IMG/VR virus record: IMGVR_UViG_3300025127_000017 | Coordinates: 1-64,000 of that record | Direction: 5' to 3' (one strand) | Length of the DNA stretch: 64,000 nucleotides | Source of the DNA: a virus | Part shown: positions 32,529 to 62,195 of the stretch, piece after piece | How the letters are laid out: every line of letters begins with the position of its first letter | Position numbering within the stretch: position 1 is the stretch's first letter | Position numbers and translations under genes: made by a program | The notes under the pieces: generated by a model | The model's database searches: none | What the model was told of the DNA's origin: nothing | Seen by the model: the letters and a program-made list of their open reading frames with translations, nothing else

Positions 32529-33191
32529 TCAATAGTCCTTAATCATTGTAAATATTCCTTGATAAACTGCTTCGGGTTCTGATTTTGCTGATACAATATA
32601 TTTATGCGTCGGTATTCCTACATCATTTAGTTTTTGCATACCGTATTTAAAAGGTTCAAAAATTGGATGCTTGTCAATCGGTGCATCGCTTTTGTATTTA
32701 TCTCCCCAAATATCATATTTGTTCGCCCAAATAGAAACTGCCATTGGATAATCTGCTTCTTTCTTTTTTCTTCCACTCGGCCATCTTTCATTTGTGATTG
32801 TATCAACTAAAAACTTCCATGCTACTTGATGGTCTAAATTACCGCCTTTATCTAAATGCCTATGGTCAATCATAAAAATAATGTATTTGACTTTTCTAGA
32901 CTGCATATCTTTAGCCCATTCTTTCCAATATATTGCTTCTCCGCCTATATCCGATGTTCTTAGAGTATTCATTTGTCCGTCCAATTTAATAGATTTTCTA
33001 GTTGCTCGATGACGACCAACGGTTCTTTTCTGTATTGTTGGTACTTCACCTCTTGTTCTTAATTGATGATGTAATGTAGTTTTCCCAACCATTGTTGCAC
33101 CATATACTCCAAAATTAATTGCATGAATCTTCTTATAAAAACCTAATATTGCTTCTCCGACTAAAATAGCAAAGCCTGTCATTAATGACAT
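32529..33191 (-). CDS. Small GTPase of the Arf/Sar/SR-beta-like class with an N-terminal hydrophobic anchor
   Basis: G1 is GATMVGKTT, switch I is VPTIQKRTVG (compare Arf PTIGFNVE) and G3 is SDIGGE. IIFMIDHRH follows, G4 is ANKYD and G5 is SAK. The N-terminus is MSLMTGFAILVGEAILGFY. The ATG at 33191 overlaps the upstream stop as TAATG, after AGTGAT. Confidence 0.75.
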   Translation of the reverse strand: MSLMTGFAILVGEAILGFYKKIHAINFGVYGATMVGKTTLHHQLRTRGEVPTIQKRTVGRHRATRKSIKLDGQMNTLRTSDIGGEAIYWKEWAKDMQSRKVKYIIFMIDHRHLDKGGNLDHQVAWKFLVDTITNERWPSGRKKKEADYPMAVSIWANKYDIWGDKYKSDAPIDKHPIFEPFKYGMQKLNDVGIPTHKYIVSAKSEPEAVYQGIFTMIKDY

Positions 33192-33481
33192 TAAACAATC
33201 ACTAATCCCTTTCCTTCCATCCGTTCCCAAAAAGTAATTGCTTCGCCTATCGGCATATGAACTAAGGGAATATCGTTAGTTTTAAATTCACTTTCTAAAT
33301 AATCAATAAATTCTTTTAAGTATTTTTCACCCAAACCTTTATTTCTATATCCCTTTTCTAAACCAAATTGACTAATTTGCCAATAAGTTCCATATTCTCC
33401 TTCAACTAATTCTGCTTCTCCATCACTTATCCTATCTTTAGAAATCCAAGAATATGTGCTTTTAAGAATATCTTTCCACAC
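33191..33481 (-). CDS. Mini GNAT-like protein (96 aa) with the MWKDILK leader
   Basis: It contains an acetyl-CoA motif A-like YRNKGLGEKYLKEF. It uses a GTG start. Confidence 0.45.
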   Translation of the reverse strand: MWKDILKSTYSWISKDRISDGEAELVEGEYGTYWQISQFGLEKGYRNKGLGEKYLKEFIDYLESEFKTNDIPLVHMPIGEAITFWERMEGKGLVIV

Positions 33482-33482
33482 A

Positions 33483-33701
33483 CTAATGCCCCCAAATTCC
33501 TTTTACTCTATCTATTAACCAACCCATTACATTAATATCAAAAACACCCATGATGTTTCCGATTAAAAATGCTGAAAGCGTAGCGCAAGTAGCCCAAAAC
33601 CACATTCTCATTTTCAAAAAGAGAATGTCTGCTGAATGCGCTCTTTGTGCATTGTAGGCATAATCTGAATCAGAAAAGCCTAACCAATCCGATACTACCA
33701 T
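33483..33701 (-). CDS. Small membrane protein (72 aa)
   Basis: It has a hydrophobic segment MWFWATCATLSAFLIGNIMGVF. Confidence 0.55.
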   Translation of the reverse strand: MVVSDWLGFSDSDYAYNAQRAHSADILFLKMRMWFWATCATLSAFLIGNIMGVFDINVMGWLIDRVKGIWGH

Positions 33702-33709
33702 TTACTCAC

Positions 33710-34108
33710 CTATTGCAACGTAGTCAAGAAATCAGAAGAAACTGAGTTTTCTGTTTCATAAGACTGTGCGATAGGTGCTAATCCTGTATATGGAGAAAGG
33801 TTGTATGATTTAGCAGTATCTTGAAGTTTCTTTCTTTGTTCTTCATCTCTTGCCATTCTAGCCCAATAAGCACTAATCTTACGGTCTAATAACCACAATT
33901 CAATCTTATCATTGAGTGAAATATCAAAGAGGGCTTTCATACACATAATTGTTCCAACGGTAATAAGGCCAAATAGAACTGCGTGGGCTAAAGGAGTATA
34001 TGGGAAAGTAGTTCCATATGTTGCGTAAAAGAAAACATTAGCACCACTAACTGTTCCAACAAAAAGAATAGTCATAACTAGGCGAGTATCTGTACTTAAT
34101 GCTGGCAT
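33710..34108 (-). CDS. Membrane protein (132 aa, two TM segments plus a charged C-terminal tail)
   Basis: TM1 is LVMTILFVGTVSGANVFFYA and TM2 is LAHAVLFGLITVGTIMCM. The tail is charged (RMARDEEQRKK). Confidence 0.6.
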   Translation of the reverse strand: MPALSTDTRLVMTILFVGTVSGANVFFYATYGTTFPYTPLAHAVLFGLITVGTIMCMKALFDISLNDKIELWLLDRKISAYWARMARDEEQRKKLQDTAKSYNLSPYTGLAPIAQSYETENSVSSDFLTTLQ

Positions 34109-34117
34109 TTAATCACC

Positions 34118-34420
34118 TCAAGCAAATTCAACAGAAACTTCTGCTGTTGAAGAACCATTCTCAACAATTTCTAAAAAGATACCGCTTCTGCACAATACTC
34201 CATGCATATCATATTCAAAGTTATAGTGGCCTGTTACAGAATGAGTAATTCTCGCAATTTCTGTACCGCTTGCACTTGTTCCATCAAACACCTTAACAGT
34301 AACTAAAGCGTTGCTTACAACTATTAAGTTTGCATGAATGCTAATCAATAGGGATTGTTCTCTATTAACAATTGCACTTGAGCCTAAAACACCACTTGAA
34401 CGACATACCTGATTTGCCAT
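34118..34420 (-). CDS. Hypothetical protein (100 aa)
   Basis: The ORF is in the operon orientation, downstream of the head genes. Confidence 0.5.
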   Translation of the reverse strand: MANQVCRSSGVLGSSAIVNREQSLLISIHANLIVVSNALVTVKVFDGTSASGTEIARITHSVTGHYNFEYDMHGVLCRSGIFLEIVENGSSTAEVSVEFA

Positions 34421-34471
34421 GTTATCACCTTCAATACGAGCAGGGAGGGTTCCCTACTTAACACTTCGGTT

Positions 34472-34834
34472 TCAATCTTTACTTAAAGCAGACTTTTTAG
34501 CCGTTGTTGAGGTTTTCTTTGGCTTAGGTTTGCTTTTAGGCTTAGGCGTTGTTTTCTTAGGAAGGAGAATATCGCACAAATCTTGAGCAGTACCGCTTTC
34601 TCTTCCAACTTCTTTTAGACCAATTTCTAAAAGTTTTTCTGGAAGATTAAGCAAATCTTCTCTATCAGATTCACCAAATTCAAACATTAAGTTTTCATCT
34701 GATAAAGCCACAATAGCCCTTCTTAAAGAAACAGAAGCAGAATCATTCCGAGTAATCTCAGTCTTCCCTTCTAATCCTTCAATAACATACCTACCGCCTA
34801 ATTGACTACCTTCTGTCAATTTAACAGTAACCAT
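34472..34834 (-). CDS. Hypothetical protein with a basic PK-rich tail (KKTTPKPKSKPKPKK)
   Basis: The ORF is in the operon orientation. Confidence 0.5.
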   Translation of the reverse strand: MVTVKLTEGSQLGGRYVIEGLEGKTEITRNDSASVSLRRAIVALSDENLMFEFGESDREDLLNLPEKLLEIGLKEVGRESGTAQDLCDILLPKKTTPKPKSKPKPKKTSTTAKKSALSKD

Positions 34835-34844
34835 TTAAGTCACC

Positions 34845-35198: not shown

Positions 35199-35208
35199 TT
35201 AAATCACC

Positions 35209-35529: not shown

Positions 35530-35560
35530 AATAAATCATCTCCTTTTTCTTTTCCTTTCC

Positions 35561-36895
35561 TCATTGAATGTTAGTAATCTTACCTTGACCCTTAAAGAAA
35601 GAACATCCGACTTCACCAATTGTTCGATACAATGCTCGGTTTCCGAGAGTACCTACACCAAATGGATTTCCATTCGCAATACCATCTTCAAAGTATTGAG
35701 TTGGCTTCATAACAGAAAGCCATAGATGGTCAGTATCGAGGAATAATAGGTCAGATAACTTTGTTGAAGCATTACCCGTTGTAGCCATGTCCTTAACAGG
35801 AATCAATGGAATATCATAGTATGTTGCAACTCTAAATCCAACTTCTTGACCCTTTGTTCCACGAACACCATTTACAGTAGGAACAATCTCCTTTCTGTCC
35901 ATGAATCGCTCTTGGCTTTGCAATAGGTCAGCAAGTGCTTGAATGGTATCATATCCAGTTAGAATAACCTTTGGTGAACCACCCGCAAGTCTTAGGTTTC
36001 TAATCATGTCATTAAGACGAGTTAGAGTCAAAGAACGAACATCTCCAGAAGCATATCCCGAACCAAAATCAACTTCAGCATCTAGGAAAGATGCAGCAGT
36101 AAATCGCTCATTGCCGTAAATTTGTCCTAATGCGTTAGAAGCAGAAGTAGTATCAGTAGCAATAACTCCACCATCAATAGCCAACAATTCTGCTCTTGAA
36201 GTAATAACCTTGTTTAACGAAGTGTAGTTGTTAGTAATGTTAGGCATAGCGGCAGATTCACCGAAATGCTCCAAAGGCATAACTAGCATCTTGTTTTGAA
36301 CTTCTGCGTGGTGTTTACCCATGTCTTCACGCATTTGCGCTCTAATATCGCCAATACCGTCATCAATCTGAGCCATTTCCATAGCCAATTCGCTGAAATC
36401 GAATTGATGAGCAACAACCTTTGGACTCATGTTTAATTGAGCATATGTTGGTGCAATTGGGCCAAGACCATCAGCAGCAGTCGATAAACCTGCATTTTCA
36501 GGTACGCCACCGATTAAATCTGCTCTTGGGTCATCAGAACCTAATTCTCCTAAAGAAGCAGTTCCCGAAGTATCGACAGAAAACAAGTTTCCGCTTCCAC
36601 CCGCAGGTCTTGACTTTAGAACTCTCCAACCGCTAGAAGAGTATGGTCGCTTTGAAATCATTGAAAGAGCATTTACTTCTCTATTCAACATAGACCATAC
36701 TTTTTGTCCGTAAACGACGTTGTATAGGGCTGAAACATCTGAAACGGCTGAACCGCTAAATGCTGGGCCTCCATCATGTCCTGTGTGAATGCCACCAACC
36801 ATTCCTGCTTGCTTAAGCAAAGAATTGCCAGCAAAAGTGCTTGTTCCGTATGTTTGTGCTTCTAAATCTGCAATAGTGTTAATATATCCAACCAT
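35561..36895 (-). CDS. Putative major capsid protein (HK97 fold expected)
   Basis: This 444-aa ORF begins 1 nt after the protease-scaffold gene, which is the canonical order. I could not verify any sequence motif by eye. Confidence 0.6.
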   Translation of the reverse strand: MVGYINTIADLEAQTYGTSTFAGNSLLKQAGMVGGIHTGHDGGPAFSGSAVSDVSALYNVVYGQKVWSMLNREVNALSMISKRPYSSSGWRVLKSRPAGGSGNLFSVDTSGTASLGELGSDDPRADLIGGVPENAGLSTAADGLGPIAPTYAQLNMSPKVVAHQFDFSELAMEMAQIDDGIGDIRAQMREDMGKHHAEVQNKMLVMPLEHFGESAAMPNITNNYTSLNKVITSRAELLAIDGGVIATDTTSASNALGQIYGNERFTAASFLDAEVDFGSGYASGDVRSLTLTRLNDMIRNLRLAGGSPKVILTGYDTIQALADLLQSQERFMDRKEIVPTVNGVRGTKGQEVGFRVATYYDIPLIPVKDMATTGNASTKLSDLLFLDTDHLWLSVMKPTQYFEDGIANGNPFGVGTLGNRALYRTIGEVGCSFFKGQGKITNIQ

Positions 36896-36896
36896 C

Positions 36897-41192: not shown

Positions 41193-41486
41193 TCACCGTA
41201 TAAAATCAGGCCCGTATTCTGGTCTTATCACGACCATTACATTTTCATTAGTCACTTCTATATCCTCTACACGGTCAGGCTCTTTTTTTCTATAATAACT
41301 GTGCAATTCATTTTGGGCTTTGCTTCTTGACATTTTTAATTTTCTTAAAGGAATAATTGCCATTGCTTTAATATTTTTTTGCATTACCCTTTGAACTTCT
41401 GGATTTACAACTTTATCAAAAATCTTTTCTAATTCTTGACTGCTTTTATTTTCGTTTCTCATCTTAAGTATATCTTCCCAACTCAT
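41193..41486 (-). CDS. Hypothetical protein (97 aa) with the MSWEDILK leader
   Basis: It has the N-terminal leader motif, and a GGAGGT SD precedes the ATG. Confidence 0.55.
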   Translation of the reverse strand: MSWEDILKMRNENKSSQELEKIFDKVVNPEVQRVMQKNIKAMAIIPLRKLKMSRSKAQNELHSYYRKKEPDRVEDIEVTNENVMVVIRPEYGPDFIR

Positions 41487-41730: not shown

Positions 41731-42088
41731 CCTTTTTCTCTCCTTTTTTCGGTGGATAAACTAAATCTCGCAATTGGCGATAGAGCAACTCATACTCCTT
41801 ACGAAGTTTGGATGCTGTGGCAACTATATCAATATTCCTTTCGTCCATTGATTTCATTTTCTTTTTTAACTTGTCATCTGTTTTGATAAAGTTTATTTCT
41901 GTCAAAGACTCAATAAGTTCTCCTAATTTAGTAAAGTCTTGACCGAAAAATTCAGTTGGTGATGCCGCTTGAACTTTCTTTTTTAACAACTTTCTTTCTT
42001 TAGGACTTAATGTATCTATTAAATTCTTTGCTACTTTTTTTTCTTTGAGAATAAATTCTTCTCCTGTATCATAAAAATCCCATGTCAT
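41714..42088 (-). CDS. Hypothetical protein (124 aa)
   Basis: The ORF is in the operon orientation and begins MTW.... Confidence 0.5.
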   Translation of the reverse strand: MTWDFYDTGEEFILKEKKVAKNLIDTLSPKERKLLKKKVQAASPTEFFGQDFTKLGELIESLTEINFIKTDDKLKKKMKSMDERNIDIVATASKLRKEYELLYRQLRDLVYPPKKGEKKDDRKE

Positions 42089-52205: not shown

Positions 52206-52696
52206 TTAGAAGTGTCTAATTTAATCCACTTTTGTAGTTGCTCAGGATAATTAATTCCTTGCAATTCTTCTTGAATTTCTTCGGGAAGAGTCTCCTTTTC
52301 CATATCTTTAAACCCCGAGTCTCTTAATTGTTTTGCGAATGAAATTAAAACTGGGTTAGCATAAATAGTCTTAGAACCTTTATTTTCTAGCATTTTATCC
52401 ACTAAAATTCTAGATAGTCCTCTTTTTCTATATTCTCTTCTAACGTGGGTTCCTGCCATTAATAAGGCATTTTTAAATGTAGCCAATCCAATAACACCAA
52501 CTGGTTTATTTTGATAAAAAGCAACAAACATTTTTGCTGGAGCAGTAGCCCAAATAGAATCAGGAGGCAAATATTTCCCATATCTTACTTTTCGTTTAAC
52601 ATAATCGTAATACCCATCCTCGACAAAGACCCTTACTGCTTCTTCTTCAGTCATTTCTTTAAAAGAAATATCGCTTTTAGAAAAACGGTCAACCAC
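52178..52696 (-). CDS. GNAT-family N-acetyltransferase
   Basis: Motif A is VRREYRKRGLSRILVDKM. The protein ends ...KWMEVLKWN and the gene overlaps the TerL start. Confidence 0.65.
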   Translation of the reverse strand: MVDRFSKSDISFKEMTEEEAVRVFVEDGYYDYVKRKVRYGKYLPPDSIWATAPAKMFVAFYQNKPVGVIGLATFKNALLMAGTHVRREYRKRGLSRILVDKMLENKGSKTIYANPVLISFAKQLRDSGFKDMEKETLPEEIQEELQGINYPEQLQKWIKLDTSKWMEVLKWN

Positions 52697-55070: not shown

Positions 55071-56875
55071 TGTGCTTCCTCCAACAATTTGCTTTCTACT
55101 AACTTGTTTATAAGTTTGTTGTTGTTAGCGATTGAAAAATACTTTTCATCTTCCTTTTGTGCAATACCTTGTAGTAGAGTATTAACTGCTTCAAATAACT
55201 TTTCTTTAAATACGTTTAGGTTTTCGTTGAATAGTTTTTCGAGTTTAGAATTGAATTGTTCGTTATCAGGAGCCTCTTCAAGTTTTGGCTTTTTTCCTTC
55301 TTTTCCGCCCCTTCTCCATGCTTTAAGTTTCTCTCTCGATTCTTTTAATTTTTTAAACTGACTTTCGTAGTCATCTATTACTTTAAAAATTTCAGAACCG
55401 TTTCTTGAACCATATCCTAAAAATGACACAATCAATAGAATATTTAAAAAACTTCTATCAGTTTTATCTAATAATTTTTTAATAGAATTAGAAACCTGCG
55501 TTATGCTTACTATTTCAGTTTCGTCCTCTTTGCCGTCATTAACTACTTGTCTTAGTAAGTCAGTAAAAGGTAATGCTCCGATTTTCTCATTTAAATCTTC
55601 ATCAATTGTTCCTTCATCGAGCCTTTTCAAAAAACTATTATAGGAGCCTACAAATTGACCATATAATCTAAAATCATCTTGGGGAACAATGATTTTTTCA
55701 TCTCTCGGTTCTTTTTCATAGTCCTTTAGAGAAAGTTCTCTACCTTTTAATAATGAATATTGCCTCAAAAAAGTATCTAATTTAGTAGATTGTTCGGCTT
55801 CTGGAATTCCTTTATCCTGTAAGAAATATTGTCCATATTTTCTTCTATTTTTGAATTGTTCTTGTGAAAACTTAGCAATTAGGGCTTGTGGTTCTGATAT
55901 AATTACTTCTCTTAATAATTGTCGAACATTTGATAGTTTACTACCAAATAATCCAACGTTTTTGATTCTCTCAACATTTACTGAAAAAATACTTTTGTCT
56001 AATTTGCTAAGATTGCTAATACTTGGTAAATATTCAATAACATTTAGATAATTTGCGATATTTGCTTGATTTACCTCTACTGCATTGTAGTTCTTCGTTG
56101 TAGTTTCTATTTCGAGAGAGGTTTTTTCTCCAAAATTCTTGCGAATTGGTGAAAAAATGACTTTTGTTTCGGAAACGTTGTCAATTTTTGCAACTTCTGA
56201 CTCAATTTTGTCCGAATTTTCCTCAAAGACCTTAAATAAAGCATTTTCATCGGTTGTCCAACCCGTTTTTTTGGGTTTTTCTTTGCCCTCGACTATCACT
56301 TTCACCAAAACGTAGTCAAAATTAGGCACTTCGTTCTTTCTAAACTGCTCAACTGTTGGTTTTTCTTGATTTTTCTTGTATAATGACTGAATTCTTGCAG
56401 TATTTTCTTGATTTGATTCAGTATATCTTCGCCTTGTTCTTTCTGGAACACTATCAGCAATCTTTTTCTGATAAATTACCAACAATTCTTTAATGTTTGC
56501 TGGATTTTTCTTAGAAGAGAAGAGTTCTTGGAAAAATTCTTCGTTATATTCTATACTTCTATCGGGAGTTACTCTCTTTGCTTTCTGAGTAACCAGTTCT
56601 TTAATCTTAGAAAACCTATCAAGTAGTTCTTTTTCATTAATACCTACCAATAAATGAGATAGAGTATATTGTTCATATACTCTACTAACTGTTTCAAAAT
56701 TAGTATCTAAATCAGGATTTTCTCTAAACATTTTCTTGAAAACACCTGAACCAGTTGAAGCACTTCCTCTTTTACCACTGCTAAGTGTATTGTATAACTC
56801 GTCAAAAGCAATAACAATTTCAACTAACACGGTGTTAGGAGAAGGTCTAGCCTTTAAGACAAATTGCCAGTTCAT
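55067..56875 (-). CDS. Hypothetical large protein (602 aa) with the MNWQFVLK leader
   Basis: It has the leader motif and is ATGA-coupled to the next gene. Confidence 0.6.
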   Translation of the reverse strand: MNWQFVLKARPSPNTVLVEIVIAFDELYNTLSSGKRGSASTGSGVFKKMFRENPDLDTNFETVSRVYEQYTLSHLLVGINEKELLDRFSKIKELVTQKAKRVTPDRSIEYNEEFFQELFSSKKNPANIKELLVIYQKKIADSVPERTRRRYTESNQENTARIQSLYKKNQEKPTVEQFRKNEVPNFDYVLVKVIVEGKEKPKKTGWTTDENALFKVFEENSDKIESEVAKIDNVSETKVIFSPIRKNFGEKTSLEIETTTKNYNAVEVNQANIANYLNVIEYLPSISNLSKLDKSIFSVNVERIKNVGLFGSKLSNVRQLLREVIISEPQALIAKFSQEQFKNRRKYGQYFLQDKGIPEAEQSTKLDTFLRQYSLLKGRELSLKDYEKEPRDEKIIVPQDDFRLYGQFVGSYNSFLKRLDEGTIDEDLNEKIGALPFTDLLRQVVNDGKEDETEIVSITQVSNSIKKLLDKTDRSFLNILLIVSFLGYGSRNGSEIFKVIDDYESQFKKLKESREKLKAWRRGGKEGKKPKLEEAPDNEQFNSKLEKLFNENLNVFKEKLFEAVNTLLQGIAQKEDEKYFSIANNNKLINKLVESKLLEEAQ

Positions 56876-56887: not shown

Positions 56888-57154
56888 TTAAAACTTACCT
56901 TCTGACACTAATTCTTCCCATTGTTCCCTAAGACCGTGTTTTCTTGTAACGTGCTTCTTAAACTGCATTAAATATTCTTTTTGCCTGCTTTTATTTATTT
57001 TACCAGACTTAACATTCTTGTAGATATTACTTAATGATTTAGCATTCATTACATCATTTTTTAACATAGTATTGAGTAGGTCTTCTATACTATCAAAGTT
57101 AGCAAAGGTAGTGTCTTCACTATATTTTTTATTAATGAGATTTCTCCAACTCAT
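56888..57154 (-). CDS. Hypothetical protein (88 aa), leader MSWRNLIN
   Basis: It has the leader motif and lies in the operon orientation. Confidence 0.55.
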   Translation of the reverse strand: MSWRNLINKKYSEDTTFANFDSIEDLLNTMLKNDVMNAKSLSNIYKNVKSGKINKSRQKEYLMQFKKHVTRKHGLREQWEELVSEGKF

Positions 57155-57258
57155 TTCTTCTCACCAGTAATCAAATCCTTTTTCTGTTTCTTTTCTTCTT
57201 CGTCTAATTCTTTAGACTTTGCATCAAACCATTGGTCAAGTAATTTGCAACGTGTCAT
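57151..57258 (-). CDS. Possible 35-aa protein (MTRCKLLDQWFDAKSKELDEEEKKQKKDLITGEKK)
   Basis: I translated this ORF by hand. It is ATGA-coupled at both ends and fills the gap. Confidence 0.3.
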   Translation of the reverse strand: MTRCKLLDQWFDAKSKELDEEEKKQKKDLITGEKK

Positions 57259-57599
57259 TCAATATCCCCCATATTATCAAGTGGTAGAGTAACAACATAA
57301 AGTCCTTCTTTTGCTAACCTTTCCTTAAATTCCTTAGTTTTATAGGTATCAAAAACAGGTGTTGTTCCCTGTCCTTTTGGTCGTCCTTCATTGTCTACTC
57401 CTGTACTTTCTACATTATTAGGGTCTAAATCCATAAGTTTCTGCCTTAACAAAAAATCATATAGAATCTTATATGAAGAAAATGCTTTAACAGGATAACC
57501 TTCGTCGGGCGTATAATCTGGTGGCCCACTATCAGTATCTCTGCTTTTGAATAATATATAAACCATTCCACTTCTTTTAATTAAACTCTCCCAACTCAT
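57255..57599 (-). CDS. Hypothetical protein (114 aa), leader MSWESLIK
   Basis: The ATG at 57599 follows GGTGATTAAA. The track start is the GTG inside the SD. Confidence 0.55.
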   Translation of the reverse strand: MSWESLIKRSGMVYILFKSRDTDSGPPDYTPDEGYPVKAFSSYKILYDFLLRQKLMDLDPNNVESTGVDNEGRPKGQGTTPVFDTYKTKEFKERLAKEGLYVVTLPLDNMGDIE

Positions 57600-57608: not shown

Positions 57609-57839
57609 CTACTCATAAACAAATCTCATTTCATAATCTACATTCGGGTTTAATCTTACAAGTTCATCTAATGACATTGATTCATCTCCCTTTTCCGTAT
57701 GTTTTAGAATTTGTTCTTTTAATGTTTCTTTACTTTTATAGAGTCCAGACATTTTACCTGTTCCTTTCTTGACGTTCAGTTCATAGACTCTCATAACAAC
57801 ATCTGGATATTCGCTTTTAATTATATCTTCCCAAATCAT
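57609..57839 (-). CDS. Hypothetical protein (76 aa), leader MIWEDIIK
   Basis: It has the leader motif plus the conserved junction block. Confidence 0.55.
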   Translation of the reverse strand: MIWEDIIKSEYPDVVMRVYELNVKKGTGKMSGLYKSKETLKEQILKHTEKGDESMSLDELVRLNPNVDYEMRFVYE

Positions 57840-57851
57840 TGTAATCTCTCC
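57836..57851 (-). repeat. Junction block GGAGAGATTACAATGA, copy 1
   Basis: The plus strand reads tcattgtaatctctcc. The block covers the SD and the ATG of the 57839 gene. Confidence 0.85.
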
Positions 57852-58114
57852 TAAATTGATTCAAGTTCTTTAATGTAATCCTTCGCTGATTTAATATAGG
57901 GGGTTGCATCTTGTCCGTCAGAAAATTTACCATCTTTAGGAACAGTTGCTAAATTGGCTTTTATTTCTCCAATTTCAAATTCAATATATTCATCAACTGA
58001 TGATTCATCAAATCCATCAGTAGCCCATTCAGAATATGCTTCATCCATATATTTTTTTATAACTCTTCTCAACTTTTCAAGTCTACTTTCTTTTACTATT
58101 TCTTTCCAACTCAT
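57851..58114 (-). CDS. Hypothetical protein (87 aa), leader MSWKEIVK
   Basis: It has the leader motif plus the conserved junction block. Confidence 0.55.
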   Translation of the reverse strand: MSWKEIVKESRLEKLRRVIKKYMDEAYSEWATDGFDESSVDEYIEFEIGEIKANLATVPKDGKFSDGQDATPYIKSAKDYIKELESI

Positions 58115-58126
58115 TGTAATCTCTCC
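58111..58126 (-). repeat. Junction block GGAGAGATTACAATGA, copy 2
   Basis: The 16-mer is exact. It also encodes the upstream C-terminus ...ERLQ*. Confidence 0.85.
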
Positions 58127-58305
58127 TTAAATTCTTCTGCGTATCTCAATGCTTCTCTAAATCTGCTTAATACCGAACCAGCAATATTAGGTCTTTCTCT
58201 ATTCGTTTCATCCAACATTTCTATTTCACCTTCTAAAAGGCGAATGATTAGATTCATTTTTTCTACATCGGTCATTTGTTTTCTAATTGTATCTTCCCAA
58301 CTCAT
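58111..58305 (-). CDS. Hypothetical protein (64 aa), leader MSWEDTIR
   Basis: I moved the start to 58305, guided by the leader, the junction block and the upstream stop at 58322. Confidence 0.5.
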   Translation of the reverse strand: MSWEDTIRKQMTDVEKMNLIIRLLEGEIEMLDETNRERPNIAGSVLSRFREALRYAEEFKERLQ

Positions 58306-58317
58306 TGTAATCTCTCC
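58302..58317 (-). repeat. Junction block GGAGAGATTACAATGA, copy 3
   Basis: The 16-mer is exact. At this site it is intergenic. Confidence 0.85.
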
Positions 58318-58321
58318 TGCA

Positions 58322-58621
58322 CTAATTAAATAATTTTGCAAAAATCCTTTTATATAATTTATCTACTTTATCATAAAGTTTAGAAGAAACTACTTTTTTT
58401 GTATAGTCTCTTAATTCCATAATACGCAAAATATTAGTGCCTTTCTCTATATCTTTTTCTACTCTATCCATTGCTATTTTAATATTATCTTTATGAAATT
58501 GATTAATGTTACTCCCTACTTCTAAATCATCATAAAATTTATTAAACTCTTTAATAAATTCTTTACTTTCAGAAATTAAATCTTTTTCTTGTATATTTTT
58601 AATTATATCTTTCCAAGTCAT
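58322..58621 (-). CDS. Hypothetical protein (99 aa), leader MTWKDIIK
   Basis: It has the leader motif plus the conserved junction block. Confidence 0.55.
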   Translation of the reverse strand: MTWKDIIKNIQEKDLISESKEFIKEFNKFYDDLEVGSNINQFHKDNIKIAMDRVEKDIEKGTNILRIMELRDYTKKVVSSKLYDKVDKLYKRIFAKLFN

Positions 58622-58633
58622 TGTAATCTCTCC
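58618..58633 (-). repeat. Junction block GGAGAGATTACAATGA, copy 4
   Basis: The 16-mer is exact. It also encodes the upstream C-terminus ...ERLQ*. Confidence 0.85.
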
Positions 58634-59283
58634 TGCATTTCTTTCTTAATCTCAAGCCAAACTTCAGGATTGTTCTGAGCAAGAACTTCTTGAACAATTT
58701 GCATCTGTGCGAATATAACTGTGTCTTGTCTCTTATGAACCAATTTACCTTTAAACTCCATAAGATACTTTAATGACTCTCTAATCTCTCTTGCGAGTTT
58801 TGTCAAACTATCAATCACCTTTGGGTCTAAATCATCCATAGCGAATACTTCATCTAATTTCATATCTAAGCGTTGAACATTCGCTGAAAGTAAATCAACT
58901 TCATTTACTTCTTTTTTCGCTATTAAGGAGGCCGCAGATTTCTGCACCAATGGCGTTAAGTGGTGCTTCATGTGTCGTTGCACCTGTTGTTTTGTTGTAC
59001 CTAATGCTTCGGAAACTGCATCACTTGTGATATTACCTTCAGATAAGGCTATTTCATAGTGTTTCCTCATAGGGTCTGTGCATAGAACACATCGAGGATT
59101 TGAACTCATCTCATAATTACCCATGTGATTTCTTTGATGCTGTGCCGCAGTTCCACTTCTCCAACCGTTGTTTGCGTCTAAAACGTCGCAACTGGTTTGT
59201 CCTGTCTCTAACATGGATTCAAGTTCTTCCCTATCCTCATGCTGGCAAAATCCACAACGCTTACGAGTAACCATTTTATTCAC
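58618..59283 (-). CDS. Zinc-finger / HTH-like DNA-binding protein (221 aa)
   Basis: It contains CGFCQHED...CVLC and an HTH-like segment SDAVSEALGTTKQQVQRHMKHH. Its function is unknown; regulator and small terminase are both candidates. Confidence 0.45.
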   Translation of the reverse strand: MNKMVTRKRCGFCQHEDREELESMLETGQTSCDVLDANNGWRSGTAAQHQRNHMGNYEMSSNPRCVLCTDPMRKHYEIALSEGNITSDAVSEALGTTKQQVQRHMKHHLTPLVQKSAASLIAKKEVNEVDLLSANVQRLDMKLDEVFAMDDLDPKVIDSLTKLAREIRESLKYLMEFKGKLVHKRQDTVIFAQMQIVQEVLAQNNPEVWLEIKKEMQERLQ

Positions 59284-59286
59284 CTC

Positions 59287-60354
59287 TCACAATATCATCT
59301 TCCATGATTTAAGAACAATAGGTTCTCCGCTTGGTGATTTTCTATCCTTTAATTCAGAAGTTCTTGTAACTACCGCTAATTCAATTAATCTCTTCATAGC
59401 AGGTTTTGTCAAGTCTAATTGAACTTGGCCCAAATCCCCCGCAAGAACTTCTCCATAAAGAATAACGCTAAGTTTTTCTGCTGATTGTTCACTTAACTCA
59501 ATAACCTTACTTTTAAGTTCAGTTCTTGCATTATTTGTCTTAAAATCCCCACCGTCAAACAATGCTCTTCTTTTCAAAAGACCAGAAATAACTCTTCTAA
59601 TTTCAGGAACCCTTGCTAATTTGTTTGCTTGTCGTAATTTAGTAATCGTAACATCATATCCCTTTGTTTCAAGTTCTTTAATGGCTGCTTTAATAATTGG
59701 CAATAACCCATCCTGTCCAGCATATTTTTCGTAAAGTGCCATATAAAGTGGAGGTTTTGCAGTATTCTTTTCATCACTTGACCACTCCTTTTTCCAACCG
59801 CTTAAACTAATACCTTTTTTACCTTCAGTTGCTTCATTGATTTTATTCCTTGCTCGGAAATAAGAAGTTTTATCTGTTCCTACATCGACAAAATGTCCAT
59901 AATAATCAACAGGGTCGTCATCAGTAATAATTATTCTTTTACCATCTTTGCTAACTCTCCATTCTTTAGGTTTTGTAAATTTGACATTCTGTGGATTTAA
60001 GATAGGACTTGCTAGAAAACCCTCTAGTATGTCTTCAAACTTCTTCAATAGTTGTAAATCTTCTTTTGTAAAAATTTGCTTGCCTTGCATAATTAGTTCT
60101 TCAATATCGGCAATTACTGTAAAAGCCCCCTTACTTCCAGAATTTCTAGACCTTCCTCTTCTAGTAGCAGTATTAACATGACTATCAACGGTTTCATAAA
60201 GGTCTTTGGTAGAATAAATAGAACCCGCAGAAACTCCTTTCATAGTTTCTTTCCACTTGTTATAATTAGTAACAAACTCGTAAGGAGTAAATTCAATAGT
60301 AGTCCCATTCAAAGAAACAACATTCTTCTTAGTCTTCTTGACCAAATTCTTCAT
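59287..60354 (-). CDS. Hypothetical protein (355 aa)
   Basis: It is a long ORF in the operon orientation. Confidence 0.6.
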   Translation of the reverse strand: MKNLVKKTKKNVVSLNGTTIEFTPYEFVTNYNKWKETMKGVSAGSIYSTKDLYETVDSHVNTATRRGRSRNSGSKGAFTVIADIEELIMQGKQIFTKEDLQLLKKFEDILEGFLASPILNPQNVKFTKPKEWRVSKDGKRIIITDDDPVDYYGHFVDVGTDKTSYFRARNKINEATEGKKGISLSGWKKEWSSDEKNTAKPPLYMALYEKYAGQDGLLPIIKAAIKELETKGYDVTITKLRQANKLARVPEIRRVISGLLKRRALFDGGDFKTNNARTELKSKVIELSEQSAEKLSVILYGEVLAGDLGQVQLDLTKPAMKRLIELAVVTRTSELKDRKSPSGEPIVLKSWKMIL

Positions 60355-60838
60355 CCTCCTTTTTCTTTGAATATCTTACGTTAATAATTGCAGGTGTAGC
60401 AGTAGTTACTGCACCTCCCGCCTTTAACGAATTAAACCATGAAAGTTGTTCTTCTGAAGTAGCCTTTGAAAAATCAAGGCCATCAATGTCAAACTTCTCA
60501 AAGGTTTCATTATCTTGTAAAAACTCAAGTAATTCATTTACAATTTTCTTTAAATTATAAACTGGTCTTCCTAGTTTCTTTTCTTCATTAAATGAACCAT
60601 TGTGAGTAAAGATAAAGAATTCACCCTTTTTATTTTGCTTTAATTTAACATTTCCAGCATCATAGTTAAGATGTATTTCTTGCCTAATCGGTGATTTTCT
60701 TTTCTTTTCGCCAACAGTAGATATAGGTGGTCTTTTTACAATATCAATATCTCCACCTAATTCATCTTGCAAATGCTCCATAAAGCCCATAGCATCAGAA
60801 GGTGAGAAATCAACTTTAAGTAAGTCAAACCAATTCAT
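60329..60838 (-). CDS. Hypothetical protein (169 aa), leader MNWFDLLK
   Basis: It has the leader motif. Confidence 0.55.
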   Translation of the reverse strand: MNWFDLLKVDFSPSDAMGFMEHLQDELGGDIDIVKRPPISTVGEKKRKSPIRQEIHLNYDAGNVKLKQNKKGEFFIFTHNGSFNEEKKLGRPVYNLKKIVNELLEFLQDNETFEKFDIDGLDFSKATSEEQLSWFNSLKAGGAVTTATPAIINVRYSKKKEDEEFGQED

Positions 60839-60840
60839 AA

Positions 60841-61119
60841 TTAATCCTCTATTTCCGCCTCAACTTTCATTTTTATTAATGCGCTAGTAAATTCTTTGAG
60901 AACTTCTATTACTTCATATGAATCAAGGTCTAACGAACTCATTGGGCGGTGTCCATCAATGACTTCACTCATTATATCATGTCCTATTATTTCTAAATGC
61001 AAAATTGCTTTTTGTAGTGATTTATACGCAGTTGGTAGTTCTTTCATAAAATCAGCACGACTTGTTTTAAATCGAGAGGATAGGTCATCTTCTTTCTTAA
61101 TTTCATCTTTCCATGTCAT
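60841..61119 (-). CDS. Hypothetical protein (92 aa), leader MTWKDEIKK
   Basis: It has the leader motif. Its 5' block of 35 nt is identical to that of the next gene upstream. Confidence 0.55.
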   Translation of the reverse strand: MTWKDEIKKEDDLSSRFKTSRADFMKELPTAYKSLQKAILHLEIIGHDIMSEVIDGHRPMSSLDLDSYEVIEVLKEFTSALIKMKVEAEIED

Positions 61120-61123
61120 AATA

Positions 61124-61387
61124 TCACGACTCTCCTATATCAATGAAGTGTTTTTCAATCATATCTTTAATCTTAAATATAAGTTTATGTGTTGGTTCTC
61201 GTTCTAATTTACCAGATGCAGAACCATATTTCGCAGGTCTTTTTGCAGGATTTAATCTTCTTTCGCTATCATATGGAGAATAATGTTGAGATTTCCACTC
61301 TTCAATAACCCTTAGACATTCATCTAAAGCGTCAAGTGCTTTCTCTCTTGATTCGTCGTTTTTCTTAATTTCATCTTTCCATGTCAT
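61124..61387 (-). CDS. Hypothetical protein (87 aa), leader MTWKDEIKK
   Basis: It has the leader motif and is preceded by the 28-nt intergenic repeat. Confidence 0.55.
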   Translation of the reverse strand: MTWKDEIKKNDESREKALDALDECLRVIEEWKSQHYSPYDSERRLNPAKRPAKYGSASGKLEREPTHKLIFKIKDMIEKHFIDIGES

Positions 61388-61400
61388 AATATCACCTTAA

Positions 61401-61428
61401 TTTTCTCAAAATTTGGGCTGGAATTTTT
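61401..61428 (-). repeat. 28-nt intergenic element, copy a (plus strand ttttctcaaaatttgggctggaattttt)
   Basis: It lies in the 39-nt gap upstream of the start at 61387. Confidence 0.85.
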
Positions 61429-61924
61429 ATTGGTCAAAACCGCCCCTGTCCTTAAACTCTTTATAGGCAATTTCCCAGTTTTTAATATATTCAGTCGCTA
61501 CTCTCGAAGCATCCATCATATTGCGAATGTATTCTGTTTTTATCTCAAGAGGTTTAGGATTATCTTTTTCTCTAACACCGAACCTTGATAGATTCATTCC
61601 TGATGGAATTCTAGCAACAATTAAATCTTCTTCAAATAAACCTATTTCTAATTCTTCAAAGAATTCACTTCTATAAAAATTCACTCCATCTAATAGTTTC
61701 TTATATTCCTTTTTAGGAGCGATAAAAAATTCATTACTATAAGCATCTCTTCCTGTTGAAATTTTACTGACGTTAAAATCTTCTTTCTTAAAAAATGCTA
61801 AAACTTCATTATACAATTTCTTAACAGTTTCTTTTCTATCATCATCAATTACATCTGGTGCAAATCGCTTTGCATCTCTTATTGCGTCTTCTGTTTTTAT
61901 TTTAAGTATATCTTGCCAATTCAT
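61427..61924 (-). CDS. Hypothetical protein (165 aa), leader MNWQDILK
   Basis: I moved the start to 61924. The track extension to 61987 reads through the intergenic repeat. Confidence 0.55.
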   Translation of the reverse strand: MNWQDILKIKTEDAIRDAKRFAPDVIDDDRKETVKKLYNEVLAFFKKEDFNVSKISTGRDAYSNEFFIAPKKEYKKLLDGVNFYRSEFFEELEIGLFEEDLIVARIPSGMNLSRFGVREKDNPKPLEIKTEYIRNMMDASRVATEYIKNWEIAYKEFKDRGGFDQ

Positions 61925-61937
61925 CTTAATCAACTCG

Positions 61938-61967
61938 TTTTTCTCAAAATTTGGGCTGGAATTTTTT
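61938..61967 (-). repeat. 28-nt intergenic element, copy b
   Basis: Its core is identical to copy a. It lies in the 43-nt gap upstream of the start at 61924. Confidence 0.85.
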
Positions 61968-62186
61968 TCAAACTTCTTTGAGAACATCTCTTAGTGCGTC
62001 TTCTGCCTTTTCTAAAGCATTAAGAGCCTCTCTAATTGGTCTTTCTGCTCTTGGAGGTAAAGGAATATACATTTCCATTGTTGATAATCTTTTTTCCATA
62101 TTGTCGATTTCTGTGAGAAATCTTTTAATATTCTTTTCTAGTTGCACATCTCTTGGGTGTCGTTTAATGACTTTTTCTTTCCACAT
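61968..62186 (-). CDS. Hypothetical protein (72 aa), leader MWKEKVIK
   Basis: The ATG at 62186 follows AGTGATTATT. The track start is the GTG inside the SD. Confidence 0.5.
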   Translation of the reverse strand: MWKEKVIKRHPRDVQLEKNIKRFLTEIDNMEKRLSTMEMYIPLPPRAERPIREALNALEKAEDALRDVLKEV

Positions 62187-62195
62187 AATAATCAC

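Follow-up and report, generated by a model that had tools for sequence, protein, structure and literature searches.

About a quarter of the genes of this marine archaeal virus carry the same eight-residue peptide, Met-x-Trp-x-x-Ile-Leu-Lys, and we found no published description of such a shared tag. The original prediction listed 20 minus-strand start codons in the window, the whole stretch of 64,000 nucleotides analysed here, that open with this leader. All 20 exist and translate as given, with one correction: the codon at 33481 is GTG, so that MWKDILK is literally VWKDILK. The extent of tagging is larger than claimed. Three further sites had been missed: 47848, 47450 (internal) and 52204 (C-terminal). 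The tagged genes of the window are as follows.

33191-33481, minus strand: 96 aa, GTG start, (M)WKDILK; weak GNAT-like match
41193-41486, minus: 97 aa, MSWEDILK
46290-46703, minus: 137 aa, MNWQIILK, Cys-rich; tag in 27/27 family members
46708-47094, minus: 128 aa, MKWKEVLK, EF-hand module; tag in 112/124 family members
47100-47573, minus: fused ORF, 157 aa, internal tag KKG-WKEVLK (Trp codon at 47450)
47579-47848, minus: 89 aa, xKWWNILK, ATT at the Met position
47844-48053, minus: 69 aa, MKWQEILK, basic DUF5872-type domain (phrog_17747)
48058-48177, minus: 39 aa, MKWWNFLK, zinc ribbon
48180-48512, minus: 110 aa, MNWQTILK, basic domain (phrog_7595)
48669-49145, minus: 158 aa, MNWMNILK, very basic C-terminus
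52178-52696, minus: GNAT acetyltransferase, 172 aa, C-terminal tag ..SKWMEVLKWN (Trp codon at 52204)
55067-56875, minus: 602 aa, MNWQFVLK
56888-57154, minus: 88 aa, MSWRNLIN, degenerate (Asn at position 8)
57255-57599, minus: 114 aa, MSWESLIK
57609-57839, minus: 76 aa, MIWEDIIK, class I junction (GGAGAGATTACA followed by ATG)
57851-58114, minus: 87 aa, MSWKEIVK, class I junction, ATGA overlap with upstream stop
58111-58305, minus: 64 aa, MSWEDTIR, degenerate, class I junction
58322-58621, minus: 99 aa, MTWKDIIK, class I junction, ATGA overlap
60329-60838, minus: 169 aa, MNWFDLLK; tag in 20/21 family members
60841-61119, minus: 92 aa, MTWKDEIK (Glu at position 6)
61124-61387, minus: 87 aa, MTWKDEIK; preceded by promoter-like repeat 61401-61421
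61427-61924, minus: 165 aa, MNWQDILK; preceded by promoter-like repeat 61939-61959
61968-62186, minus: 72 aa, MWKEKVIK, degenerate M-W form; preceded by promoter-like repeat 62197-62217

The shared leader is confirmed as real and non-random. Translating the window in all six frames yields 14 instances of a strict pattern, M.W..[ILVM][ILVM][KRN], always on the minus strand and always at an ORF start, compared with a mean of 0.3 and a maximum of 3 in 200 dinucleotide-preserving shuffles. Strict N-terminal matches are likewise far commoner than in shuffled proteomes (15 among the 90 called proteins; the average over 2000 shufflings was 0.0175), and homologues in related genomes retain the tag. 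When 512 tagged ORFs from the window and 80 related loci were trimmed of their first 9 residues and compared by BLAST (E < 1e-5), they formed 192 separate clusters, bearing out the claim that the proteins are unrelated beyond about residue 10. Equally, the motif opens none of the recognisable proteins of capsid, tail or replication, as had been predicted. The labels given to individual carriers fared less evenly. Pfam matches on homologues confirmed the EF-hand of the 47094 family, and the zinc ribbon at 48177 was supported (E ~4e-5), with two Pfam scores just below their curated cut-offs (23.7 vs 25 and 23.3 vs 27). The 'mini-GNAT' at 33481 had only a sub-threshold Pfam match (E = 0.005; 17.5 bits vs a cut-off of 20.7). 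Read by eye, the C-terminal module of the 47094 protein looks like a winged helix. Family and structure matches were sought for the 602-aa protein, and none was found.

Selection on the tag acts at the peptide level. Trp3 was present in 350 of 354 cases and never replaced by Phe or Tyr, and Lys8 in 399 of 414, with Arg only four times; position 6 prefers I >> V >> L and position 7 L >> I >> V. Across 20 orthologous families, amino-acid identity at positions 3, 6, 7 and 8 was 1.0, 0.74, 0.78 and 0.98, against ~0.4 elsewhere, while synonymous differences at the same positions (0.34-0.57) were as high as elsewhere. Leu7 uses all six Leu codons, with the second base alone fixed, Lys8 uses AAA and AAG at the background ratio, and relatives whose GC content is 40-47% encode an unchanged peptide with other codons (CTG/CTC; AAG 52%). 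None of the three outcomes named with the original prediction as refuting it was observed. This free drift of synonymous codons disfavours, for residues 3-8, the proposal that a common translational-control RNA site overlapping the start codons accounts for the motif. Codon 2, nevertheless, is under real nucleotide-level constraint (A-N-T; Ser is AGT in 74 of 83 and never AGC), and an ATGA stop/start overlap is present in 38% of tagged genes. DNA-level conservation otherwise extends only to the junction between RBS and leader (GGAGRRATTACA-ATG-AGT-TGG) in ~30% of families, so that a recombination linker for cassette shuffling, as also suggested, is plausible for these families but not for the remainder.

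Within a family the tag is essentially all-or-none: it was present in 112/124, 27/27, 33/35 and 20/21 members of four example families, in 0-1 of ~80 for TerL and a 456-aa protein, and in none for portal and ligase. Comparison with phage sequences shows that the tag was added, in this lineage specifically, to protein families that already existed. The PHROG profiles of three tagged proteins begin at residues 8-10, and bacteriophage homologues of three tagged families begin just past the tag position. Indeed, in Methylophilales phage MEP402 an untagged version of one gene pair of the window sits immediately upstream of TerL: gp49, the homologue of the 48053 protein, begins MATPKKKSTVN, and gp48 (phrog_14910) is that of the 47848 protein. 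In our window the latter site reads ATT AAG TGG TGG AAT ATT CTA AAA, lacks a canonical start codon and shares bases with the TAA that ends the 48053 gene. Celeribacter phage P12053L gp37 also lacks the tag, and in the 48512 domain family it was found in 7 and missing from 68 of 75 assessable 50%-identity representatives. A scan of 596 Gb of cellular genomes with the pattern ATGANTTGGNAAGAYATHYTNAAR gave 33 scattered single matches, which is chance level, and none in Poseidoniales; in IMG/VR the pattern was found in >118 stretches among the matches listed, and 1.4 Mb of related loci held 55 matches. The tag is specific to one lineage of marine archaeal tailed viruses, the group-B-type magroviruses. 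Magroviruses are tailed viruses linked to Marine Group II archaea, and the window is assigned to a group-B1-type magrovirus by gene content and literature description rather than by direct comparison with named genomes.

The description 'N-terminal leader' holds for the usual position, but ~5% of copies are C-terminal and ~6% internal, at junctions of fused modules. In the fused ORF at 47100-47573 the internal tag lies between an 'AAAAYASGY' module (phrog_31267) and a basic 'DPKKGTGKKPKGS' module, and one downstream module was seen both as a separate tagged gene and as a fusion with an internal tag. In the 47094 family the tag stays N-terminal even where the EF-hand module has been lost. The C-terminal copy belongs to the GNAT gene directly upstream of TerL, whose 3' end overlaps the TerL start such that the M-E-V codons of the tag contain the TerL Shine-Dalgarno sequence GGAGGT and the K-W codons its ATG (52187). 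This tag is retained in 37 of 39 GNAT homologues, forming the final residues in some (..GWFEILR) and being followed by extra domains in others. The tag therefore tolerates N-terminal, C-terminal and linker positions. Where it ends the protein no scissile site is possible, and a model in which it is purely a removed propeptide cannot explain everything.

Taken together, the results describe a short linear peptide tag whose core is W-x-x-[I/V]-[L/I]-K and which usually follows Met-x at the extreme N-terminus. AlphaFold placed it in a helix at residues 3-10 of the 47094 protein, followed by a low-confidence linker, and in the GNAT in a helix at 162-170 which, with its linker, scored near or below 50, compared with a pLDDT of 86 for the fold. 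These low-confidence models suggest a two-turn helix on a flexible tether, with Trp, Ile/Val and Leu/Ile on one face. Because the residue preferences are stereospecific and recur on unrelated folds, we consider it probable that the tag is a docking tag read by one common putative partner protein, be it receptor or enzyme.

The most likely purpose of such docking, and still a tentative one, would be loading into the procapsid as capsid cargo. Several observations count for a virion fate. All tagged genes lie on the structural strand, either within the head module or upstream of it; the cluster from TerL to portal encodes small, very basic tagged proteins; an S78 prohead protease is encoded in the window; and Pro was absent from position 9 (0/173). 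In addition, part of phrog_220 ('minor head protein and DNA pilot') matches the 48512 domain, copies of which are also embedded in phage proteins of 900-2300 aa. Of the explanations originally offered, a targeting or processing signal like the capsid-targeting sequence (CTS) of T4 appears the best fit. The diverse internal proteins of T4 have only a conserved CTS in common (PMC3012670). The tag has a parallel in this CTS, carried by hypervariable proteins, and another in the terminal peptides that load cargo into encapsulins. It has, however, no sequence similarity to either.

Other observations count against capsid loading. In some relatives, >70% of the ORFs of a 14-kb stretch are tagged (19 of 26 in one of them), which, together with tagged proteins of 600-800 aa, would be much cargo for a capsid with a ~95 kb genome. 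Many tagged proteins are also small, acidic ORFans whose region has promoter-like repeats of its own and looks like an early or host-takeover block. Core head proteins were examined for the site and no convincing copy was found. The sole hint there was an invariant ..N[AS]LLK|QAG.. in the N-arm of the MCP, a protein that is highly conserved throughout.

Weighing both sides, we give the docking and capsid-loading explanation as a whole a probability of about 40%. Under it, the docking site would be the scaffold, the protease-scaffold protein, the packaging vertex or the inner face of the HK97-fold shell, and the S78 protease might cleave N-terminal or linker copies behind the invariant Lys. New genes would probably gain the tag via recombination at the conserved RBS-ATG-tag junction, a step for which the conserved junction provides support in the class I subset only. 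The carriers are the accessory part of the proteome, where turnover is fast: between TerL and portal small basic DNA-binding-type proteins, upstream of TerL small acidic ORFans and, besides these, a few proteins of 600-800 aa and the GNAT adjoining TerL. They would be packaged alongside the DNA and then delivered to the next host.

All 20 minus-strand starts that the original prediction had credited with a common N-terminal leader are present as described, the one at 33481 being a GTG start. The leader, here called the tag, is a Met-x-Trp-x-x-Ile-Leu-Lys peptide with the core W-x-x-[I/V]-[L/I]-K. Its strict pattern occurs 14 times in the six frames of the window, always at the start of a minus-strand ORF, as compared with a mean of 0.3 and a maximum of 3 in dinucleotide shuffles; similarly, 15 of the 90 called proteins match at the N-terminus, against 0.0175 in shuffled proteomes. 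We also found three extra copies: one at 47848, where ATT takes the place of the Met codon and overlaps the upstream TAA; KKGWKEVLK, inside an ORF, at 47450; and SKWMEVLKWN, immediately followed by the stop codon, at the C-terminus of the GNAT (acetyltransferase) gene, where it overlaps the start of TerL. Tagged genes are confined to 33.2-62.2 kb of the structural strand and, in agreement with the earlier claim that replication and tail genes lack the motif, none of the replication or tail block is tagged in the window. A 760-aa protein adjoining the portal (42088-44370, minus strand) begins with MMHRIILK, which is the tag with His replacing Trp; none of the 80 related loci has a homologue, which makes it a singleton in a variable slot.

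With a G+C content of 33.5%, the window combines a replication block on the plus strand with a long morphogenesis block on the minus strand; its main features are as follows.

Principal features of the window (coordinates, strand, description)
replication block, plus: RFC, AAA_24 ATPase, family-B DNA polymerase, PD-(D/E)XK/Cas4-like nuclease and ERCC4 nuclease (Pfam/PHROG scans)
4178-5839, plus: family-B DNA polymerase, half 1 (exonuclease plus pol profile 25-193)
5840-6463, plus: HNH endonuclease gene, between the PolB halves along with four small ORFs
7134-8021, plus: family-B DNA polymerase, half 2 (pol profile 222-365)
27513-25870, minus: tail tube
36895-35561, minus: major capsid protein (MCP), SU10-type HK97-fold (SU10_MCP match)
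38177-36897, minus: S78 prohead protease fused to a C-terminal sequence of about 250 aa (presumed scaffold)
38216-40717, minus: ATP-dependent DNA ligase, 833 aa, among the head genes; ligase domain only at residues 247-432
46248-44611, minus: portal
52187-50757, minus: TerL
52696-52178, minus: GNAT, upstream of TerL
morphogenesis block, minus: 2034-aa tail protein

In IMG/VR, the relatives are marine metagenome contigs (Tara and JGI samples) 92-97 kb long, with 216 TerL relatives and more than 595 MCP relatives; the TerL relatives among the matches listed, from 820 homologues, are at least 82% identical, and related loci were kept at 81% identity or above. According to the published description (PMC5434244), group B/B1 magroviruses are tailed viruses, linked to Marine Group II (Poseidoniales) archaea, that have a genome of about 100 kb, a replisome of archaeal type, a PolB in split form and a ligase gene set among the structural genes. 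The window shows the traits of this group, with RFC, a split PolB, a ligase between head genes and relatives of 92-97 kb. From its gene content and that description, we regard it as probably part of a group B/B1-type magrovirus, the link to the host being indirect.

Tagging in the relatives is widespread and highly regular. Removal of the first nine residues from the 512 tagged ORFs of the window and 80 loci around TerL left 192 BLAST clusters, consistent with the initial impression that the proteins are unrelated past the leader. The logo of the tag reads M-[S/N/T/K]-W-[K/E/Q/F]-[D/E/N]-[I>V]-[L>I]-K and shows no conservation past residue 8, although Pro is absent at position 9, Asp and Glu are enriched at position 10 and acidic residues predominate at position 5; 0, 1 or 2 residues separate Met from Trp. 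Within a family, possession of the tag is essentially all-or-none (112/124, 27/27, 33/35, 30/32 and 20/21 members). The core genes are untagged, with 0-1 of about 80 copies for TerL and a 456-aa protein, and none for the portal, the ligase and other core genes. Elsewhere in the relatives tagging can be locally dense, with 19 of 26 ORFs tagged in L160, one of the related contigs. Outside this clade, the distribution of the tag is that of contigs found by the pattern alone, with 29-47% GC. Pfam matched five families, with one member each, among 150 tagged representatives, so the cargo is almost entirely ORFans. The genes of magroviruses, which are among the most abundant archaeal viruses of the surface ocean, are mostly ORFans; we know of no magrovirus, and no host of one, in culture.

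Some tagged genes are tandem paralogues, for example the pair starting at 61119 and 61387. About 20 consecutive tagged genes in L160 (1103-13900, plus strand) include seven tandem paralogues of 184-806 aa, which have ..ILKNIQISSQRTSSKDYV.PDE.. in common directly after the tag. Such cases would fit common ancestry alone, with all tagged proteins being far-diverged paralogues that retain just the N-terminus. However, three tagged families have untagged bacteriophage homologues, which makes the families older than the tag, and the folds that follow it differ (GNAT, zinc ribbon, EF-hand plus a winged-helix module identified by eye, and basic disordered proteins). We therefore give this explanation next to no probability.

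The phage homologues indicate that the tag was added to older domains in one lineage. PHROG profiles of the 47848, 48053 and 48512 proteins begin matching at residues 8-10. Directly upstream of its TerL, Methylophilales phage MEP402 (Zobellviridae) carries counterparts of the 48053 and 47848 genes side by side, both untagged (gp49, N-terminus MATPKKKSTVN; gp48, N-terminus VAKAKSQKSL), and gp37 of Celeribacter phage P12053L, also untagged, begins with VPSKKKDPRLDRAGVSGY. An exhaustive search with the 48512 domain gave 904 representatives at 50% identity; the domain start could be located in 75, and the motif lies directly upstream in only 7. The other representatives start with M[AS]KKDPRLARAGVSGY or lie inside multi-module proteins that do not contain the motif. 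Tblastn matches in roseophages that seemed to reach the leader (query from residue 3) were discarded as a chance in-frame W after a stop codon.

Multi-module proteins of this kind were seen in metagenomic sequences from other viruses. In P0123, P0126, P0127 and P0133, small basic modules (DUF5872-like, 47848-like, winged-helix-like and 48512-like) are strung together in single proteins of 250-520 aa, with no W-x-x-I-L-K between modules. In P0139, a metagenomic protein of 1114 aa, a KxDG ligase-like N-terminus (EPKLDGIH, read by eye) is joined to a 48512-type basic domain; a Pfam scan of P0139 detected no ligase domain. This fusion hints that the ligase and the small basic modules may act together.

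A scan of 596 Gb of bacterial and archaeal genomes with one specific codon pattern of the tag gave 33 scattered single matches, none of them in Poseidoniales, as compared with 55 matches in 1.4 Mb of related loci and at least 118 stretches in IMG/VR. Since the cellular matches look like chance and Poseidoniales have none, the host does not appear to use the tag as a signal, and a host-encoded signal was rejected.

The tag was first described as an N-terminal leader, which is true of most copies but not of all. Strict-core copies are N-terminal in 525 cases (159 clusters), within 12 residues of the stop in 29 (4 clusters) and internal in 36 (6 clusters). The same module can be split or fused at the motif, being a separate N-terminally tagged gene (MGWKDILKVLPPS..) in the related locus L003 and fused (..FTWKNILKVLPPS..) in L067. 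Lys usually replaces Met in the fused copies (KK[SG]W). Members of the 47094 family keep the tag at the N-terminus with or without the EF-hand module. In the AlphaFold2 model of the 47094 protein, the tag forms a helix of its own at residues 3-10 (pLDDT about 65), and the linker after it has low confidence. The GNAT model has a confident fold (pLDDT 86, pTM 0.81), with the tag helix (162-170) and the linker preceding it at about 50 or below. Both predicted tag helices are short, with pLDDT values of about 48-65.

Conservation of the tag is mostly at the level of the peptide. In 20 orthologous families, identity at positions 3, 6, 7 and 8 is 1.0, 0.74, 0.78 and 0.98, against about 0.4 elsewhere, and synonymous differences at tag positions 6-8 (0.34-0.57) are as high as anywhere, as expected from the original view that selection acts at least partly on the peptide. 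Among 173 non-redundant leaders, Leu7 is encoded by all six Leu codons, with all four bases at codon positions 1 and 3 and the second-position T fixed, and Lys8 is AAA or AAG in the background proportion. Where relatives have 40-47% G+C, codons move to CTG, CTC and TTG, and AAG rises to 52%, while the tag residues are unchanged. The residue preferences are stereospecific: Trp is found in 350 of 354 cases and is never replaced by Phe or Tyr, Lys in 399 of 414 with Arg in just 4, and the order is I >> V >> L at position 6 and L >> I >> V at position 7.

These preferences bear on whether the tag is a membrane-targeting amphipathic helix of the MinD/FtsA type that brings tagged proteins to the membrane or to a membrane-bound assembly site. 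The low-confidence two-turn helix predicted for the tag would place W, I and L on one face, together with Lys, and is tethered at either terminus; a polybasic run often comes after it; and a literature text search showed that frog dermaseptins, which are membrane-active, begin with a sequence (ALWKDILK..) whose core is identical to that of the tag. However, generic helices of this type tolerate exchanges among W, F and L and between K and R, which is at odds with the near-invariant Trp and Lys and with the different I-versus-L preferences of the tag. In addition, acidic residues prevail at position 5 and are enriched at position 10, and eight residues are short for stable membrane binding. We consider membrane targeting quite unlikely. 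A Sec or Tat signal peptide was rejected, since only two or three hydrophobic residues, as against the 7 or more of a Sec h-region, are present before charged residues begin and there is no RR motif.

Some constraint does act on the nucleotides. Codon 2 has an A-N-T bias, and codons 4 and 5 are A/T-biased at their third positions. Where residue 2 is Ser, AGT accounts for 89% of codons, against a background of 29%, and AGC is never used (AGT 74 cases, AGC 0, over the window and the related loci L001-L234, where about 28% AGC would be expected among AGY); AGT also prevails at codon 2 in the relatives with 40-47% G+C (26 of 40 leaders). An RBS spacer, GGAGRRATTACA, is conserved in 45 of 171 families, and an ATGA overlap with the upstream stop is present in 38% of tagged genes, which partly accounts for the A at +4 and would amount to translational coupling. 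All of these features would suit a translation-initiation cassette, in which the RBS, the ATG and the first eight codons form an insulated start of low structure, perhaps with a favourable nascent peptide, that ensures expression of new ORFs. What such a cassette leaves unexplained is the peptide itself: positions 6-8 are fixed as amino acids with their codons free, and low mRNA structure has no need of Trp, Ile, Leu and Lys in particular. Furthermore, the motif is kept at C-termini and within fused ORFs, where no initiation occurs, and the highly expressed structural genes do without it. As a primary function, an initiation cassette is very unlikely. The codon data and the C-terminal and internal copies contradict a pure initiation cassette, and a translational-control site overlapping the start codons, raised at the outset as an alternative, is disfavoured for residues 3-8.

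A second DNA-level feature lies upstream of the start codons. A class I junction, AAATgcAGGAGAgATTACA|ATGAGTTGG.AAgAtATA.T.AAA, precedes 51 unrelated, mostly acidic families, and 28% of the pairs among them share at least 20 identical nt through the ATG (13% at least 25). Among pairs from the other 120 families, the identical stretch running through the ATG has a median length of 4 nt and is as long as 20 nt in only 0.3%. The class I junction goes with AGT at codon 2 (73%) and with acidic proteins (median pI 5.3), and a GTGAT-type junction goes with basic proteins (median pI 9.4). This association of junction class with codon 2 and protein type suggests propagation at the DNA level. In the window, the identical 13-mer AGGAGAGATTACA stands directly before four consecutive tagged ATGs (57840-57852, 58115-58127, 58306-58318 and 58622-58634, minus strand).

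These results make the class I junction a credible route by which new genes gain the tag. They also bring in the possibility that the primary function is that of a recombination linker, with the junction DNA shuffling cassettes between co-infecting genomes in the manner of the T4 PeSL cassettes. The long identities between class I families, the tracking of codon 2 and protein type by junction class, and the occurrence of modules both fused and split exactly at the motif are all expected on this basis. The 120 families with almost no shared DNA are not, nor is selection on a peptide whose residues at positions 6-8 are fixed while their codons are free. Homology-block breakpoints do cluster at gene starts, but at untagged ones about equally, so that the breakpoint test does not discriminate tagged genes. 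Thus, of the linker originally proposed, DNA identity of at least 20 nt is seen within the class I subset (28% of pairs among the 51 families), and the remaining families, the codon data and the C-terminal and internal copies speak against the rest; we attach very little probability to shuffling as the primary function.

Two other features of gene starts were observed. The 47848 gene does not have an ATG, GTG or TTG start; instead, ATT or ATA in the Met position overlaps the upstream TAA (AATTAAGTGG, 47844-47850 of the window, minus strand). This arrangement is conserved in about two dozen related loci (for example at position 8313 of L016 and 5387 of L022), and the phage counterpart pair, MEP402 gp49/gp48, has an overlapping GTG in place of ATT or ATA. 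The sequence suggests a non-canonical start or termination-reinitiation. Secondly, a promoter-like repeat, CCAGCCCAAATTTTGAGAAAA, occurs three times (61401-61421, 61939-61959 and 62197-62217, minus strand; 0, 0 and 2 mismatches; 0.01 expected), and its AT-rich core precedes the ATG of three tagged genes by about 24 nt. Were the core an archaeal TATA box, acting at about -24, the mRNAs of those three genes would be nearly leaderless.

The C-terminal copy on the GNAT deserves separate consideration. The GNAT-fold gene always precedes TerL in the relatives examined, and 37 of 39 homologues (48-99% identity) carry the motif near residue 165. The motif may form the last residues of the protein (..GWFEILR before the stop), or be followed by 2-5 residues set by the ribosome-binding site of TerL, or by one or two extra domains. 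This raises the possibility of an enzyme-recognition tag, such that the viral GNAT, or the second, weakly GNAT-like protein encoded at 33481, would acetylate the tag Lys (or the N-terminus) of tagged proteins, the enzyme's own copy being a putative pseudo-substrate, auto-acetylation site or oligomerisation tail. The near-absence of Arg at position 8 is what would be expected if the epsilon-amine were used chemically. The enzyme is a core gene with the tag on a flexible tail, the 33481 protein is itself tagged, and the predicted fold belongs to the GNAT superfamily, with top structural matches that include protein acetyltransferases (GCN5, HP0935) as well as small-molecule and aminoglycoside acetyltransferases. 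On the other hand, the C-terminal GNAT copies often have Arg for Lys (WFEILR, WKKILR, WKKVLR), which would be strange if the enzyme were its own substrate; Foldseek matched generic GNATs (TM about 0.5), from which no substrate can be read; and acetylation alone offers no reason for tagging more than 190 families. We regard it as unlikely.

Position and flexibility are also relevant to a degron or timer, read by a host or viral protease or unfoldase (proteasome-PAN, Cdc48 or Lon), that would make accessory proteins short-lived or clear them at a set stage. Like known degrons, the motif is short, hydrophobic and basic, flexible, terminal and usable at either end, and it is concentrated on small accessory proteins that look early. 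However, it is unused in host genomes, and the internal linker copies would be out of reach for recognition based on a terminus. Nor are the very basic small proteins obvious candidates for turnover, their domain being found also in giant, probably virion-associated phage proteins. A degron therefore has a low probability in our view.

In our favoured interpretation, whose probability we put at roughly two in three, the tag is a short linear motif through which the tagged proteins dock onto one and the same partner. A common reader is suggested because the tag is carried by unrelated folds, is maintained at the peptide level with Trp and Lys almost invariant, sits on a tether, can stand at either terminus or within a linker and is absent from host genomes. 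Acetylation by the viral GNAT, a degron and a membrane-targeting helix are rivals that would retain such a reader. The core W-x-x-[I/V] formally matches that of the LIR/AIM motif, [W/F/Y]-x-x-[L/I/V], which is read by Atg8-like proteins; Pfam and PHROG scans of the window proteins gave no beta-grasp protein as an Atg8- or ubiquitin-like reader. Searches of core proteins (789-aa, 456-aa, 760-aa, 352-aa, 221-aa and small) for a receptor, against Pfam, PHROG and PDB sequences, gave only a weak TPR match and an HNH domain, and W-x-x-[IV]-[LI]-K was not found at the relevant places of head proteins. In the N-arm of the MCP (35561-36895, minus strand), an invariant ..AGN[AS]LLK-QAG.. follows a short variable insertion (TYGTSTF, TYGINNLP, TYGMNLP); this is a possible candidate maturation site that resembles the [IL]-L-K end of the tag, although the motif is uninformative since the whole MCP is 81-98% conserved.

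What the docking partner does is a more tentative matter. By analogy with the best-fitting precedents, its job may be the loading of cargo into the procapsid, an assignment to which we lean without attaching even odds. Several observations are consistent with this: no tagged gene is found off the structural strand, the interval between TerL and the portal encodes a block of small, very basic proteins, an S78 prohead protease is present, and the 48512 domain, which in part matches phrog_220 ("minor head protein and DNA pilot"), also occurs inside phage proteins of 900-2300 aa. Pfam detected no head-protein domain in these giant proteins. Judging from the sequence, the sharp end at the invariant Lys, with no Pro next to it, would suit trimming of the N-terminal and linker copies; copies that end a protein cannot be scissile sites. 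Against capsid loading, the tagged proteins are numerous and large for such a capsid, and the acidic class I genes look early, with the three promoter-like repeats at 61.4-62.2 kb.

The closest precedent is that of the T-even phages, in which diverse hypervariable internal proteins have only the capsid-targeting sequence (CTS) in common (PMC3012670). As with the CTS of T4 (IPI, IPII, IPIII and Alt), the tag is an N-terminal peptide of about 10 residues on unrelated, hypervariable and often basic accessory proteins of a tailed virus with a prohead protease. The T4 CTS also has the aromatic-x-x-hydrophobic-hydrophobic spacing of the tag, and ends in the gp21 cleavage motif L/I-x-E. In contrast, the tag has no sequence similarity to the CTS, ends in Lys (97%) and is not followed by L/I-x-E; it is also found at C-termini and in linkers, and on far more families (192 clusters, and up to about 70% of ORFs in some regions). 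In addition, the host here is archaeal and the protease is of the S78 (HK97) type rather than the gp21 type. The tag thus resembles the CTS of the original comparison as a short peptide shared by unrelated accessory proteins, but differs from it in sequence, in the absence of L/I-x-E and in its range of positions.

Encapsulins, which are HK97-fold shells, load unrelated cargo via short terminal peptides, and the likeness extends to the flexible linker, the use of either terminus and the HK97-type MCP found here, which would be a candidate reader. Their cargo-loading peptides have a Gly/Ser-Leu-rich consensus, as opposed to W-x-x-[IV]-[LI]-K, and serve a nanocompartment rather than a DNA-filled virion, and the cargo genes here are spread over about 30 kb instead of lying in a shell operon. 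Other head-packaging signals differ in lacking a single 6-8-aa consensus. N-terminal segments direct or go along with the packaging of non-structural proteins, both large and small, into heads, as with the targeting signal of phage P1 DarB (PMC9024508) and the propeptides of the ejection proteins of the giant phages SPN3US and phiKZ (PMC10052503), and some are trimmed by the prohead protease. The signals in P1 have no common consensus across cargo, and the giant-phage propeptides are 20-254 aa long and are cut at A-x-E.

Two further systems resemble the tag in part. Prp cleaves an N-terminal extension common to ribosomal protein L27 and the capsid and scaffold proteins of staphylococcal phage 80alpha, so that there, too, unrelated proteins carry a short conserved N-terminal peptide, which one protease recognises; that signal, however, is encoded and used by the host, whereas the tag is unused in cellular genomes. 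At the gene boundaries of hyperplastic regions, PeSL cassettes of the T4 type and lambdoid boundary sequences provide short conserved DNA, which is non-coding and consists of promoters or terminators. Class I junctions, which share 20-41 identical nt between unrelated genes, could mediate cassette shuffling in the same way, but the conserved part of the tag is coding and selected as a peptide, and most junctions have no DNA identity.

Cargo loading by docking suggests a model whereby one peptide of 6-8 residues, readable at either terminus, would address more than 190 unrelated and rapidly exchanged families to the capsid. The cargo would include DNA-binding proteins, acetyltransferases and proteins of 600-800 aa, and would be delivered with the DNA into Marine Group II archaea; the junction of RBS, ATG and tag would act as a landing pad through which new genes enter the cargo pool. 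Taken as a whole, such large-scale encapsulin-like or CTS-like loading by a genuine virus, with delivery to the host and a junction landing pad, is in our view less likely than not.

A short targeting or docking peptide shared by diverse viral accessory proteins is already known as a kind. New here are the consensus itself, its presence in an archaeal virus, its independence of position, its scale and the coupled DNA junction. Term searches of the magrovirus papers PMC5434244 and PMC11706807 turned up no reference to the motif, and a literature text search for motif strings returned only frog dermaseptins and unrelated papers.

About a quarter of the proteome carries this one peptide, which provides a means of assigning ORFans to a functional class. 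Were it a capsid-loading signal, the tag would define the proteins injected into the host, which would then be candidates for anti-defence and takeover functions; it would also, as far as we know, be the first such signal in an archaeal virus, a natural bridge between encapsulin cargo loading and virus capsids, and a minimal portable tag for packaging foreign proteins. Should the tagged proteins prove to have another fate (modification, turnover or localisation, for instance), so strong a linear motif, spread through a virus and specific to its lineage, is still unusual.
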